From assembly GCA_964016885.1 (NCBI GenBank), contig OZ024748.1:56296001-56360000 (forward strand): a DNA stretch of 64,000 bases, given 5' to 3'. The notes beneath the pieces were generated by a model. The model saw only the letters and a program-made list of their open reading frames with translations, was not told the origin of the DNA and searched no databases. Within the stretch, counting starts at the first letter, position 1. Every line of letters begins with the position of its first letter. Position numbers and translations under genes: made by a program. The DNA is from Eledone cirrhosa. Lineage: Eukaryota. Shown here one piece after another: positions 18,926-63,123 of the stretch.

Positions 18926-19141
18926 GTATATGTAGATTGTTATAAATCGTATGTATACGTACACATGGATATGTATATGTATGCAAATAGCTGCGTTTGC
19001 ATATATAAAACTCTATTTGCTATGTTCATGTATGTTATATATTTTTTTTTATTTGTGGCTAATTTATTTCTTGTAGAGATATGTCATTATAAACAACATA
19101 TTATAAAAAGCATTACTATATATACATACGTATAAACATAC

Positions 19142-23371: not shown

Positions 23372-24033
23372 TATAAGTATGTATACGTACATACATATAT
23401 GTATACAGACGTAGAGTAGTATGTATATATATATACATGCACACATACATATATGTACGTATGAATTTACCGAACACATATTATAATGACCGGTTTGTTT
23501 GTAAACAAACATCCCGAATTAAGCCGTACAGTGTTTAGCAACCATCGTTGCCCTTTTGTTCAACACTGACAAAGGACCGATGTACTAATATCAAGCTTAT
23601 TAACTATCGTCAGCAACGTATACCTTCCTGCCAGATGATTGAATATCTGAAAGTATATACTTTCCTTATGCATATTAACAGCTGAGTAGCCTAATTTGCA
23701 TATCGAGTGAGTTAATCTGCCGGGCGCACCGAAAACGGTAAATGGAAAGAATGAAACGAAATTTCATTTCTCACTCTTAGTACGGCTGTTACTTAAATAT
23801 ATGTATGTATACGTACATACATATATGTATGCAGACGTACAGTATTATGTATATATATACATACATGCACATGTGTGCACATATGTGCACATGTGTGCAC
23901 ATGTGTGCATGTATGTATATATATACATACTACTGTACGTCTGTATACATATATGTATGTACGTATACATACATATATTTAAGTAACAGCCGTACTAAGA
24001 GGGAGAATGAAATTTCGTTTCATTTTTTCCATT
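23372..24033 (-). mobile_element. ~420-bp HHR-bearing repeat unit (retrozyme/pLTR-like), ~1.2 units plus fold-back inversion (23741-24033)
   Basis: Homologous to 35986-36729. Minus HHR-like motif at 23578-23618 (cgttg-CTGACGA-tagt-taataa-gctt-GATA-ttag-TA-catcg; GAAA mutated). aatggaaagaatgaaacgaaatttc... is mirrored by ...gaaatttcgtttcattttttccatt. Confidence 0.8.
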
Positions 24034-24054
24034 CATATATACATATATATACAT

Positions 24055-33227: not shown

Positions 33228-33233
33228 AGGAAG

Positions 33234-33286
33234 AGCTTCTACAGGACTAGAACTGTTTCATTCGTGAGAGAAATCATCAGGAAGCT
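33234..33286 (-). ncRNA. Type I hammerhead ribozyme motif, intact core
   Basis: Minus: agcttc-CTGATGA-t-ttc-tctcac-gaa-t-GAAA-cag-ttctagtc-ctg-TA-gaagct. Perfect 6-bp stem I, 4-bp stem III, GUA cleavage triplet; short stem II. Confidence 0.75.
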
Positions 33287-33337
33287 GGTTTCCTGATGAT
33301 TTCTCATGAATGAAACAGTTCTAGTCCTGTAGAAGCT
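33287..33337 (+). ncRNA. Type I hammerhead ribozyme motif (mirror copy)
   Basis: ggtttc-CTGATGA(33293-33299)-tttctcatgaat-GAAA-cag-ttctagtc-ctg-TA-gaagct. Stem I includes G-U pairs. Confidence 0.7.
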
Positions 33338-33952
33338 CTTCTATATTAAAACTGTTATACTCTGCTATGTATTGAGTACCTTACTTACTGTGGTTACCTC
33401 CGATTCAACCCGGAATAACTATATATATATATATATCTTGTGTGTGTGTTTCAGAGATAGTTTGATAGAAAGGAAAACTAATATAATTATAACGAAGACA
33501 CTCGTATGAGTATGTGTGTGTGTCTGGGCACTTGTGAGTGAGGACATGTGTGTGTGCATATGAGCGTGTATGTGTGTGTGTGTACGTTTTGTGAGATACC
33601 TGCCTGTATGACGTATATATAAGGGTCATAAATATACCTGATACATTGAAGCAATAAGTAGTGTAAAACAGAATTAAATATTATATTACATGTCATTTAA
33701 ATGCATTTGTGGCAGAAATAGTTGTGTTATAGAAAAAGATGTGTAAGAAGTTGCCATCAATGGAATAAGAGATGGGAAAAAAAGGGAAGGGAAACCTATC
33801 AAAATTAAACCGAATGCTTATGGACTTATTCCCTTAGGAGAAGGTAAGAGTTTTAATGCCGACAGCGACATCAAGCGGTTTCAGGTCATCTTCTCATTCA
33901 TTGAGTAGGCCCAAGCATTGCAAGCTCTCTCTCTCCCCACTCTCTCAATCTC

Positions 33953-35890: not shown

Positions 35891-35985
<95 letters not shown>

Positions 35986-35987
<2 letters not shown>

Positions 35988-36729
35988 AACAGCCCGAATT
36001 ATTAGCCGTACAGTGTTCGGCACCCATCGTTGCCATTTTGTTCAACACTGACAAAGGAACGATTAGCTAGTTTCTCGCTTATTAGCTGTCATCAGCACCG
36101 TATACCTTCCTATCAGTTGATTGAACGTTTGAAAGTATATACTTTCCTTATGCATATTAACGGCTGAGCAGCCTAATTTGCATATCGAGGGAGTTAGTCG
36201 GCCGGGGGTACCGAGAACGCTAAATGGAAAAAATGAAATTTTATTTCTCACTCTTAATACGGCTGATACTTAAATATAAGTATGTATACGTAGATACATA
36301 TATGTATACAGACGTAAAGTAGTATGTATATACATACATACATGCACACATATATATATGTACGTATGAGTTTACCGAACATTCATTATAATGCTCGTTT
36401 TTTTTTGTAAACAAACAGCCCGAATTATTAGCCGTACAGTGTTCAGCAAGCATCGTTGCCATTTTGTTCAACAATGACGATTAGCTAGTTTCTAGCTTAT
36501 TAGCTGTCATCAGCACTGTATACCTTCCTGTCAGTTGATTGAACGTTTGAAAGTATATACTTTCCCTATGCATATTAACGGCTGAGCAGCCTAATTTGCA
36601 TATCGACTGAGTTTGTCGGCCGGGCTTACCAAAAACGATAAATGGAAAAAATGTAATTTCATTTCTCACTCTTAGTACGGCTGATACTTAAATATAAGTA
36701 TTATACGTACATACATACATGTATACAGA
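35986..36729 (-). mobile_element. Tandem (~1.75 copies) ~420-bp HHR-bearing unit; retrozyme/PLE pLTR-like
   Basis: Direct repeat with HHR cores (plus-strand tcatcag) at 36089-36095 and 36507-36513, 418 bp apart. Minus: gtg-CTGATGA-cagc-taataa-gc(g/t)a-GAAA-ctag-cta-atcg. Starts directly after a (TA)n tract. Confidence 0.85.
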
Positions 36730-37313
36730 AGTGTTGACATTTGATAATTTTGAAGAAGTGAATTTTAAATATTAAGCTATAAAATATATTTAATCAAGAG
36801 CCACGAAATTTAGCACATGAATTATGTAATATTCATTCATTATTTATTCAAAGTAATCCAACTTATTTTACAAACGGGGTAAAACAATATATTCTGGACG
36901 CAATCCCGCATTCTTTCCTTTATTATAATTAAGATACTCATGGGGACGGTTATATCTTCACATACACACAAAACATACACAACGCGTACACCAACTGTGG
37001 GCCAGCGGCCTTTGATATATCTGAGATATGATCAGTTTAAAATATTCATAGTGAGACACTTTTATGATTATCATACAGCTCTATTTTATATAAATATCCT
37101 TTTTTGCGTATACACATCAACGTACCCACACTTACACATACACACATACACACACACACACAAGATGGTCAACTGAATACGCATGTGTGTTTTGTTTTCT
37201 CCCCAATGTTTTCTCATTTTTCCCGTTCATTCCTCTTAACACTCTTTACTTTGTATTTATCTTCTATTTCTAAAGAAATATATTAGTTTAACACTTGAAA
37301 TAGCAGGAAGAGA

Positions 37314-37351
37314 ATCTTAACGTTTCGGACACTACACCTTCATCAGAAGAT
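37314..37351 (-). ncRNA. Minimal type I hammerhead ribozyme motif with palindromic stem III
   Basis: Minus: atctt-CTGATGA-a-gg-tgtagtgt-cc-GAAA-cg-TT-aagat. 5-bp stem I; AACGTT palindrome in place of a stable stem III. Confidence 0.65.
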
Positions 37352-44743: not shown

Positions 44744-45104
44744 GTGTGTGCGTGTGTGTGTGTGTGTGTATGCTTTCTAAAAAATGAAACTCGAAAAAAT
44801 AGTTTGTGTTCACGAATATTATTTTCATTCTGAAAGCATAATGTCACTCATGGCGGAATTGTAACAAACTTGACATCATAGTCATGACCAGATCAATATC
44901 AATTTAAATAGCAATTTTATTTTAACATTTACTCCCCAAGCATCAACATACACCCGGTCTCGTATTGAAAAAACATTTGTTAGGATTAAGAGTCGATTTT
45001 TGTTGTGCATATATATAAGTGAAAAGTAAAAGTAAAACAAATATGCAAGAAGGATATAGTACAATGAAGGTTGATATTATTTTAATGCCAGCTTTAGCAA
45101 GAAG

Positions 45105-45145
45105 AGTATCTTAATGTCTCGGACGATAGTCTTTCATCAGAGAGA
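45105..45145 (-). ncRNA. Degenerate hammerhead motif related to 37314-37351
   Basis: Minus: tct-CTGATGA-aa-gac-tatc-gtc-c-GAGA-ca-TT-aagat. GAAA is mutated to GAGA; abuts (GA)n/(TA)n. Confidence 0.45.
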
Positions 45146-50473: not shown

Positions 50474-50779
50474 ATATACAATATATTAACAAATGTAAAC
50501 TATACTTATAAAACCATATTTATTTCATTATACATATTTCAAGGGCCACCAGAGCAAATTATGGTGCGCTTTCATCAGATAAAATATAATATAGGTTAGT
50601 TTTATAAATAAATATTGACATACCCTTAAAAAAGCAACCATTGTGGTTGGAATCTCCTGGATATTATATTTTATCTGATGAAAGCGCACCATAGTTTGCT
50701 CTGGTGGCCCTTGAAATATGTATAATGAAATAAATATGGTTTTATAAATATAGTTTCCATTTGTTAATATATTGTATAT
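50474..50779. repeat. Inverted repeat (~119-bp arms, ~68-bp spacer), each arm carrying an HHR-like motif
   Basis: Arms 50474-50592 and 50661-50779. Plus: CTGATGA(50675-50681)-aag-cgcacca...tggtggc-cctt-GAAA(50713-50716)-tatg-TA-taat. Stem I is weak or bulged. Confidence 0.9.
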
Positions 50780-54406: not shown

Positions 54407-55740
54407 CAGGTATCGACTAGATTTCCCCAATGTGCCAGTATTATGGATATGGACCAACCGAATGGGGTCATCTAGATTGTATATAGACAGGATCTTCATT
54501 AGGAAAATAGATAGAAATAGTGTGAGCTGCCCAATTTTAAAACGGTCGCCTATTCAGATCACAAATTTGTGATCTGTACGGTCGACCTAGATAAAACGCG
54601 TAGGTTAGGACCGGGTTACTGGAAGCTGAACATGTCATTTCGGGCGCGTAAGACTTACAGGGACCGAGTCAACAATTTAGTTAAGCAAAAGTTGACAGGG
54701 GGATCATCAACAACAGATGGTGGGGGGCTCTCAAAAGAGAGATTAGAGTAACTTCGATAGAGTTCAGCAAAGAACTAGCGTTAGAGAAAAATAGAAAGGG
54801 GGGAGAGCTGGTAGATAAGTTAGACGAGACTATTTTTAGTGGCATTGCAACTGACGTGCTAGCGGCGAGAATGGCATTAGACTATTTCTTCAATGCCAAA
54901 CACGAAGGTTGCATTGTCGGAGCTAAGGCGCGTGCGCTGAGAAACGAGGGAAGCAAACCTGTTCAATGAGCCCGCGTGGCGGAGGCGCAGCGTGGTAATA
55001 AAACCACAATTCGGTCTTTGGCGGACCGAGACGGACACGAGATAAGCGATTCCAAGCGGATGTGTGAGGCCTTTCGCCAGCACTTTGCTCGGTTGTTCGG
55101 GGACAGTGGCGAGTCAGAGAGAGTAGCGGATTTCAGTCCCTACCTTGACGGTTTGCCGCGCATCTCGACGGTCGACGCTGAGCGCTGCGAAAGGCCGATT
55201 ACTTCAGCCGAAATTCAGGACGCCCTTGTCGGCTGCATGAGGCGCAAGTCACCCGGTTCGGATGGCCTGCTCTACGAGCTTTACGTAAATATGCCAGACT
55301 TGTCCTCCGAATTCCTCGAAGCACTCTACTGCAACTGGCAGCTCATTTCTTTGACTGAGCTTCAGCCCTGGGTCAAGAAGAGACCGAGACTGGGTGACTG
55401 GCACCTGGAATGTTGCCAGGCACCCACTTCCCTCTACCAAGCGGGCAATCAGTGGAACTTCCACTCTCGAGTTATATAGAGGATTAGTGGTAGGCATGTG
55501 CAATGACGCACTCGGAGAAGCTTTGCGCCTCGACGAAGTCGAACTGACCAGTCTGTACCGGAGGACTTTTGAGCCGGGGACGATGGACAATTTCCAGAAA
55601 TCCCTCGCTTGGCAGTGCTACCGGGGGCCACTGCCGGTTCGGAATAAACTCGACAGGCACGGAAGTGCTGTCAGACAGACCTGCCCAAGATGCGCACAGA
55701 ACGATGAACCTTGATGTCAGCCTTGTGGCCAATAAAGAAA

Positions 55741-58590: not shown

Positions 58591-59174
58591 AAAGAAACCA
58601 AATAACGCTTACATACTCAAACAGTTTTTATTTGCTTTCAATGTCTCATCCATACCGTTGGGCAGGAATCATCAGAGCTTAATAAACACAGTGCTGAGTA
58701 TAAGCAATACCAAGCTTAGTCACACGAACAATCGGAATACAATAGAGTGTAAAGATAGGGAGATCGGAGATGGCGAATAAGGAGAGAGTACATGCTGGGG
58801 TTGTTAAACACCACAGCTAAATGCTAGGGCACAAGCAGATCTCACAAGATGCAGATACAATTGATGGCAGAAACAAATTGATTTTGTGTGCCATCAATTG
58901 TATCTACATCTTGTGAGATCTGCTTGTGCCCTAGCATTTAGCTGTGGTGTTTAACAACCCCAGCATGTACTCTCTCCTTATTCGCCATCTCCGATCTCCC
59001 TATCTTTACCCTCTATTGTATTCCGATTGTTCTTGTGACTAAGCTTGGTAGAGCTTATACTCAGCACTGTGTTTATTAAGCTCTGATGATCCCTACCCAA
59101 CAGTATGGATGACCATTGTAAGCAAATAAAAACTGTTTGAGTATGTAAGCGTTCTTTGGTTTCTTTTACATATA
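58583..59174. repeat. ~590-bp palindrome (~287-bp arms, ~19-bp spacer) with a decayed HHR in each arm
   Basis: Left arm ends gatacaattgatggca (58869); right arm starts tgccatcaattgtatc (58889). HHR-like: gct-CTGATGA-tcc...ggat-GACC-attg-TA-agc (59078-59123, plus) and gct-CTGATGA-ttcc...ggat-GAGA-cattg-AA-agc (58634-58680, minus). Confidence 0.95.
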
Positions 59175-59353: not shown

Positions 59354-59489
59354 TAACAGATTAAAGTTTAAGCAAAGAATCACTGCTTTCACACTTAACG
59401 GGATCTTCTGAAACTAACAAAGTCAATCTGTGAACGCAGACACATATATGCGTACACATATGGGTCATATTGAACATTAATAATGTTCG

Positions 59490-59748
59490 ATTCGTGTGTA
59501 AGCAAGCGGCCCGTCTTGAAGTTGTGCCATGCCGGTGACCGATCGTCACCTGTTTGTTCAATACTAGTTTTGAGGAACAATCAACATGTTTCTGGGTCAT
59601 TACGCTTCATCAGGACTGTATACCTCTGACTGTCTGTTAAACCTTTTAAAATACATAGTATTTTCTTAAGTATACATCAGCTGAGTCGCCTCATTTGCAT
59701 ATACTGGCGAGTTACGGCTGGCCTTGCCGAATATCAAAAATAATGTAA

Positions 59749-62514: not shown

Positions 62515-62520
62515 ATATAT

Positions 62521-62933
62521 AAACGGAAAAAATGAAACGAAATTTCATTTCCCACTCTTAGTACGGCTGTTACTTAAATATAAGTATGTACACGTACATA
62601 CATTTATGTATACAGACGCACAGTAGTATGTATATATATATATACATACATGCACACATATATATATATGTACGTATGGATTCACCGAACATTTATTATA
62701 ATGCTAATAAGCTTGAAACTAGTACAGCGTTCCTTTTTCAGTGTTGAACAAACGAGCAACGATGTTTGCTAGACACTACGGCTTAATACGGGATGTTTGT
62801 TTACAAACACAACGAGCATTATAATAAATGTTCGGTGAATCCATACGTACATATATATATGTGTGCATGTATGTATATATATATATACATACTACTGTGC
62901 GTCTGTATACATATACGTATGTACGTGTACATA

Positions 62934-62940
<7 letters not shown>
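62521..62940. mobile_element. ~420-bp HHR unit family member with internal inversion, embedded in (TA)n
   Basis: Arms ~62578-62705 and ~62815-62940 are inverted. The spacer begins gc-taataa-gctt-GAAA-ctag-TA-cagcg (HHR 3' part); CTGATGA is lost at the junction. Confidence 0.85.
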
Positions 62941-63015
<75 letters not shown>

Positions 63016-63070
63016 TATACATATATATAAGTATTAATAAAATATATGTTCTTTTGATCAATTATATTTT

Positions 63071-63123
63071 ATTATACATATTTCAGATGTACAACAGTAC
63101 GTCCTCATCAGACAAAATATAAT
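63071..63123 (-). ncRNA. Hammerhead-like motif related to the 50474-50779 arms
   Basis: Minus: attatattttgt-CTGATGA-ggacgtac-tgtt-gtacatct-GAAA-tatg-TA-taat. Same flanks as 50663-50726 but a different, still paired stem II. Confidence 0.6.

Follow-up and report, generated by a model that had tools for sequence, protein, structure and literature searches.

A compact snRNA-type block as a likely built-in promoter ahead of the hammerhead motif in Eledone retrozymes

Octamers and hammerhead repeats in the window

The window analyzed here, a 64-kb stretch of Eledone cirrhosa DNA, carries four octamer-bearing copies from a clade of noncoding hammerhead repeats (non-LTR retrozymes) with monomers of 418–467 bp. 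All four are ordinary decayed insertions. The octamer, ATTTGCAT in plus-strand letters, lies at 23694–23701, 36176–36183, 36594–36601, and 59693–59700, and CTGAYGA cores lie at 23607–13, 36089–95, 36507–13, and 59607–13, placing the octamers 81, 81, 81, and 80 nt from the core end. These coordinates and distances, put forward in an earlier sequence-only reading, proved exact on recount. All four sites lie on the minus strand, where the octamer reads ATGCAAAT, an established POU-site sequence. The features of the window are as follows.

59459..59743, minus strand: decayed retrozyme copy of family B comprising promoter block, hammerhead, and body, with (TA)n 5′; BLAST to the family-B reference, 85.8% over 288 nt
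59693..59700, minus strand: octamer ATGCAAAT inside the extended motif TATGCAAAT(G/T)AG common to host U6 and RNase MRP promoters
59681..59684, minus strand: TCAG at octamer +16, candidate core of a proximal element like that of host U1/U2/U4
59652..59657, minus strand: TATA box position, mutated (TATGTA vs. family TATATA)
59572..59627, minus strand: type I minimal hammerhead, core 59607–59613, stem III the palindrome CATG, one change disrupting stem II
59627, minus strand: predicted start (TATA+30) of the family-B copy
36347..36712, minus strand: family-A1 monomer 1 of a 418-bp tandem pair; octamer 36594–36601, TCAG 36582–85, TATATA 36554–59, core 36507–13
35982..36295, minus strand: family-A1 monomer 2; octamer 36176–83, TCAG 36164–67, TATATA 36136–41, core 36089–95
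23442..23813, minus strand: family-A copy; octamer 23694–23701, TCAG 23682–85, TATATA 23654–59, core 23607–13
23962..24036, plus strand: inverted 3′ tail of the 23.6-kb insertion, reaching the family's fixed 3′ end
62519..62938, strand unassigned: family-A2 insertion flanked by (TA)n tracts, promoterless and 5′-truncated, part of it inverted, lacking the octamer

The 23.6-, 36.1-, and 36.5-kb copies belong to family A. The 59.6-kb copy belongs to family B, which is separate and older; it equals the family-B majority at 163/180 columns, and the view of it as a drifted family-A copy was rejected. The four are homologous to one another, as repeats from two sister families, and so do not count as four independent observations. 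Further sister families, C to F, came to light through pattern searches and evenly spaced sampling; an octamer pattern gave the first sequences of A2, C, D, and F. The bodies of C to F are homologous to A or B (z 4–32), although E and F compared with each other do no better than chance (z 0.8). Monomers occur as pairs and in long tandem arrays, with at least 40 consecutive 466-bp units among those listed. Repeat-body queries gave 26 hits in 100 evenly spaced 10-kb samples (1 Mb), or ~26 per Mb, and extrapolation from these hits gives roughly 80,000 copies genome-wide, that is, tens of thousands. There is no credible ORF of ≥150 aa across the window copies and no LTR-type end among the repeat copies inspected. 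Contigs from two sequencing runs of unrecorded kind cover the repeat, which has no bearing on expression.

Several other features were noted alongside these repeats. An inverted pair of another CTGATGA-bearing repeat at 58600–59150 (cores 58669–75 and 59083–89) adjoins the family-B copy, and further Penelope-type hammerhead-like motifs without an octamer, several in inverted pairs, lie at 33230–33350, 37300–37350, 45100–45145, 50530–50730, and 63060–63115 of the window. A 169-aa open frame on the plus strand (54970–55479) appears to resemble a LINE reverse-transcriptase-adjacent fragment. Outside the window, family C (L204, L205, L140, L079) carries a ~33-bp octamer-like unit repeated tandemly several times upstream of the main octamer, in the manner of an enhancer array. 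Two single loci (L197:1009; L198, minus strand) have TATGCAAAT(G/T)AG ~100 nt before a hammerhead without TATA at +42, and could represent further families.

The number of octamers in the window is not enriched (5 observed vs. a shuffle mean of 7.7), the fifth lying at 18981, outside the hammerhead repeat. The count is thus uninformative; it is the pairing of octamer and core that lies far above chance genome-wide. In 3.0 Gb, octamer–core pairs at gaps of 70–76 number 4,787 vs. 20 with a reversed control, and pairs with GAAAY at gaps of 84–110 number 10,918 vs. 4; these counts cover those two gap ranges, and the window copies' own gap is 79–80.

The modal sequences of the families fold as type I minimal hammerheads, with a CUGANGA plus GAAA core, stems I–III, and an NUH cleavage triplet, which is GUU in A1, B, and F. 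Stem I is 6 bp, and its pairing is kept by compensatory changes in families A1, A2, B, E, and F (counts not de-duplicated). Stem II is 4 bp, and in A and B one pair at its foot is left unformed; stem III is palindromic and four bases long in the modal sequences. In the window the motif is damaged throughout: the 23.6-kb hammerhead has GAAA changed to GATA, the 36.1-kb one has a damaged cleavage triplet, the 36.5-kb one is altered in both cleavage triplet and 3′ stem I arm, and the 59.6-kb copy is damaged in stem II and TATA box. The first three do not qualify as hammerheads and the 59.6-kb copy qualifies in part. An Rfam scan of the window returned no hammerhead at gathering scores, and folding-energy z-scores were weak, with 6/7 above −2.

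A compact promoter-like block and its host counterparts

A promoter-like block precedes the hammerhead motif in every monomer. To this extent the proposal that each monomer carries a promoter followed by a self-cleaving site is supported, and the resemblance, being to U6/MRP and U1/U2/U4 promoters of the host itself, is closer than had been proposed; self-cleavage by the four window copies, all of them damaged, is not supported. With positions counted from the octamer start, 8/8 family representatives show TCAG, TCAC, or CCAC at +16 and TATA at +41 to +43, although TATA-like words are common in this AT-rich genome, which weakens the TATA evidence. The hammerhead core follows at +79 to +100 across families; the fixed octamer-to-ribozyme spacing of ~80 nt suggested from the window holds only for A1 and B. 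The compact block spans 73 bp. TATA+30 lands on a pyrimidine/A junction in 6/8 representatives, so that transcription is predicted to begin where the extended hammerhead stem I has its 5′ edge. The young and abundant family A2 (L061–L090) has lost 8–9 bp between TATA and hammerhead, a deletion that puts TATA+30 at 8 nt before the core and would shift the predicted start to the first bases of stem I. Each monomer also has a run of five to seven Ts (T5–7) upstream of the next octamer.

Host snRNA-class genes provide the closest counterparts. Among the U6 loci, 20 were fetched and seven inspected; five of these seven (3 distinct promoters) have TATGC(A/T)AAT(G/T)AG at −76 to −78 and TATA at −30. 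The single RNase MRP gene has the extended octamer and TATA as in U6. Two U6 hits (L174, L175) have no proximal octamer and are likely pseudogenes. No octamer was found upstream of 12 distinct U1 (300 nt), 5 U2 (300–420 nt), or 7 U4 (100 nt) sequences. These genes instead have TCA(G/A)T at −56 to −58 (5/5 U1, 4/4 U2 tabulated, 5/7 U4, the last from one array), with a TATA-like word near −30 in 4/5 U1 and 2/4 U2 promoters and a TCAG-to-TATA distance of 26–27 in four U1 promoters. The RNase P gene lacks the octamer, has TCAGT 32 bases before TATA, and ends in a T10 run. A distal element, TTAYCTCCC at ~−260, is present in 12/13 host genes checked, covering both promoter classes, and is missing from 3/3 repeat monomers checked. 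The host loci compared over their upstream 300 nt were L161, L162, L163, and L246 vs. L216–L226, L181–L184, L337, and L339. Tandem arrays of host genes lie at C19:31.78–31.84 Mb (U6, with the variant octamer ATGCTAAT), C3:307.35–307.45 Mb (U2), and C2:180.97–180.99 Mb (U1).

The repeats thus share the extended octamer of U6 and MRP, and a TCAG and TATA-like box at U1/U2 distances, with host promoters. They differ in lacking the distal TTAYCTCCC and in combining octamer and TCAG, a combination seen in no inspected host gene. On sequence and spacing, the repeats join the U6/MRP octamer to a TCAG–TATA core of U1-type spacing. The 59.6-kb copy matches the MRP promoter over 17 nt, but some of these bases are peculiar to the copy, and at family level the match shortens to 14 nt; the longer figure was set aside. 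Because the block matches host snRNA-gene promoters, the repeats likely transcribe themselves, and we regard it as very probable that the block acts as a promoter of some snRNA type.

It could be argued instead that the motifs are an inherited remnant, or serve at the RNA level through structure or protein binding, with transcription by read-through from neighboring DNA. The monomers do lack the distal host element. In addition, in the 1-Mb sample the octamer lies upstream of only 9/50 hammerhead hits and 41/50 have no octamer within 130 nt, so that hammerhead repeats are able to spread without it; the octamer as a general feature of hammerhead repeats was rejected on this count. However, the three motifs keep a fixed spacing while the bodies are nearly unalignable, as between E and F, and they sit within a few bases of their host promoter positions. 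We consider this alternative improbable.

Given an snRNA-type promoter, the choice of polymerase is the next question. The main rival to Pol II is Pol III, since host genes marked by the octamer are all Pol III genes. Were the block a type 3 promoter like that of U6, transcription would begin ~76 nt beyond the octamer, within stem I or shortly before it, and stop at the T5–7 run ahead of the next promoter, with occasional read-through giving multimers. Consistent with this, U6 and MRP are the only host genes inspected that have a proximal octamer, insertion 3′ ends fall 0–10 nt past the T run, and the ~290–340-nt body has no T4 run in 3/4 monomers tested. The T4 absence is not significant, however (P 0.24–0.68), and T4 depletion was rejected as a Pol III sign. 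The octamer-to-TATA distance in the repeats (41–43 in 8/8 representatives vs. 46–48 in U6/MRP) is also 4–5 bp too short, and the TCAG sits at its U1/U2 distance. Moreover, a terminated RNA would be without the promoter, and yet 5′ ends of insertions show no pile-up at the predicted start or cleavage site. The Pol III alternative appears unlikely, though less so than the remnant. Pol II is favored because the RNA must pass the T5–7 run and because the TCAG-to-TATA spacing, 25–27 in the repeats, is U1-like; the comparable Pol III spacing comes from one gene, RNase P, whose start is unmapped. The restriction of the octamer to Pol III genes of the host counts against this choice. On balance, Pol II is probably the polymerase if the block is an snRNA-type promoter, and the spacing difference of 4–5 bp may be what decides it. 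The passages considered from PMC10886601, PMC6309819, and PMC1761439 do not settle the polymerase choice; for the insect PSEA, those from PMC1761439 discuss both sequence and spacing.

The octamer is held in source lineages and decays in inserted copies

The intact octamer of the 59.6-kb copy, surrounded by much-changed sequence, had been taken as a sign of conservation. Compared without gaps to the 36.5-kb copy, the octamer core is indeed 11/12 identical, with 7/28 upstream and 10/23 downstream; the changed neighbors are, however, those of a member of a sister family rather than of a drifted copy. The same pattern holds between families: across seven representatives compared ungapped, the 12-base core (−1 to +10) is 92% identical, and the flanks are 35% (upstream) and 47% (downstream) identical. 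As several families were first found via the octamer, retention was rechecked with body-only queries on the 1-Mb sample. Among the copies so found that reach the site, 17/20 have the exact octamer, two have one change, and one has two; the exact octamers span families A, B, C, E, and F. An octamer-less sister family too distant for body queries would be missed by this sampling.

Within families the picture is different. In family B, octamer columns were compared with other non-CpG columns in 31 copies chosen without the octamer pattern. Mismatches to the majority make up 10/248 (4.0%) of octamer positions vs. 174/4,949 (3.5%) elsewhere (p = 0.60), and the octamer ranks 83 of 130 windows. Family-B copies found by flanking anchors keep it in 47/68 cases (counted by eye), approximately as expected at 4–5% per site. 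Family A1 (38 copies) gave 2/304 vs. 161/5829 mismatches (p = 0.025; rank 11 of 112), but this set consists of top-similarity hits and the comparison takes in subfamily-diagnostic columns. The per-column comparison that the sequence-only reading had proposed thus gives no excess in family B and, in A1, a weak signal that we do not trust. Protection of the octamer in inserted copies was rejected for family B, whose copies lose it at the flank rate, and the intact site at 59.6 kb is no sign of conservation among copies. Flank-rate decay within family B, together with retention between families, indicates that the octamer is kept in the source lineages and decays once copied.

These results bear directly on whether the host retains the octamers as dispersed POU enhancers. 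In the evenly spaced samples (1 Mb), the clade supplies 18/73 exact octamers, where a second-order Markov model expects 47, and the A1 octamer columns are the less variable ones. The prediction that the repeats would spread POU-type sites is therefore borne out, as a number only. Against a host function stand the composition of the A1 set, the behavior of family B, and the agreement of the anchored copies with the 4–5% prediction. The clade is a real contributor to the octamer supply, with no sign of the host keeping the sites. Co-option of a few single copies is possible, and retention as dispersed enhancers we hold to be very improbable.

Probable Penelope-type copying and a proposed place for the block in the retrozyme cycle

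Insertion 3′ ends fall within one 7–15-nt window in 42/63 family-A, 22/41 family-B, and 8/11 family-F cases. They cluster 29–36 nt upstream of the octamer position and, when clustered, run into (TA)n in 30/42 (A), 7/8 (F), and 6/22 (B) cases. The 5′ ends are scattered and often inverted, at most 10/81 family-A 5′ ends falling in any 7–15-nt window. The repeats show the insertion features of a nonautonomous Penelope-like element (PLE): their 3′ end is fixed, their 5′ ends are truncated, partial copies occur inverted or in tandem, and the target is (TA)n. Fixed 3′ ends that enter (TA)n, with the 5′ ends scattered, are consistent with Penelope-type copying. The passages considered from 10.64898/2026.07.22.740005 and 10.1101/2021.04.23.441226 describe PLEs in the same terms, with 5′-truncated copies, partial tandems, truncated copies lying inverted next to one another, (TA)n targets, and hammerheads. 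The Eledone clade shares these insertion features with the nonautonomous PLEs treated there (Li, Clavereau and Pollet 2026; Craig et al.).

GIY-YIG elements are abundant in the Eledone genome. Among 30 of the 150 GIY-YIG loci listed, no partner Penelope element sharing tail or sequence was found, barring two separate insertions. Several of the 30 also run into (TA)n; a hammerhead lies within 900 nt in 1/30, and in none is an octamer before it. In 13/30 loci (L353–L382), TTAYYTCCC, the distal word of host snRNA genes, occurs 70–190 nt after the GIY-YIG match, against a high background of 329 per Mb, and the repeats may themselves be its source. Li, Clavereau and Pollet (2026, 10.64898/2026.07.22.740005) propose PLEs as parents of vertebrate retrozymes in the passages considered; that work covers vertebrates, and no pLTR parent was found for the Eledone clade in the 30 GIY-YIG loci.

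Retrotransposition normally strips an element of any promoter that lies upstream of its start. Our best explanation, to which we lean without great confidence, is that the octamer forms the upstream part of a compact snRNA-type block that is likely a built-in promoter, more likely for Pol II, and that the promoter is preserved by copying from a circle. Transcription from one unit would run on through the next unit or units, and paired hammerheads with palindromic stem III would excise a unit-length RNA holding the promoter sequence inside. Once circularized, this RNA could be copied by a Penelope-type RT/endonuclease into (TA)n from the T-rich tail 29–36 nt upstream of the octamer, often for more than one turn round the circle, so that the promoter-then-ribozyme order would be rebuilt in each new insertion. 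By restoring the promoter ahead of the ribozyme, circle copying would explain how a promoter upstream of the start survives retrotransposition, and also why selection is seen among source lineages and not among inserted copies.

Much of this has precedent. In the passages considered from Cervera and de la Peña (2020, PMC7229834), which also describe the retrozyme cycle, metazoan non-LTR retrozymes are circular RNAs with units of ~170–400 nt and PLEs are the proposed mobilizer. The Eledone repeats resemble them in being ORF-less tandem units with one type I hammerhead each, in having a weak palindromic helix III suited to dimer cleavage, as in amphibian-type retrozymes, and in the mismatch at the helix II base, as in axolotl HHR_Amex2 (PMC7229834). 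They differ in their unit size of 418–467 bp. The newt satellite 2 promoter is reportedly an octamer plus a PSE. This hammerhead satellite, the subject of Coats, Zhang and Epstein (1994), has an internal snRNA-type promoter used by Pol II, according to the passages considered from PMC2220036, and it is like the Eledone clade, compared by description only, in uniting a hammerhead repeat with an snRNA-type promoter. The Eledone block is unlike it in being compact (73 bp), in having a TATA box, and in setting a Pol III-gene motif on Pol II spacing. Retrozymes, and an snRNA-type promoter in a newt hammerhead satellite, are therefore known already; what appears to be new, judging from selected passages of the literature searched, where it was not found, is the compact hybrid layout in an invertebrate clade.

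The main text of PMC7229834 contains no "octamer" and uses "promoter" only for T7, and that of 10.64898/2026.07.22.740005 contains none of "promoter," "octamer," and "snRNA." The supplements of these two papers and of 10.1101/2021.04.23.441226 may list promoter motifs or cephalopod elements. Within these limits, the two retrozyme papers (PMC7229834 and 10.64898/2026.07.22.740005) name no promoter, and newt satellite 2 is the one precedent found. No paper on the Eledone U6/MRP or U1/U2 promoter elements was found in the literature searched, which was covered in part; these host elements were defined here as a by-product and are useful for guide-RNA expression.

The candidate promoter can be read base by base against the host snRNA genes, which yields a predicted start nucleotide and three mutable motifs. 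More tentatively, it may be a chimera, a Pol II core with U1/U2 spacing on which the U6/MRP octamer stands in for the distal enhancer. Carried in a self-cut circle, it would have supplied about one in four of the genome's perfect octamers. Animal retrozymes are highly expressed in all tissues examined, as stated in the passages considered from PMC7229834. If the chimeric reading is true, capture of an snRNA promoter would offer a general answer to how these elements come to be expressed in all tissues.
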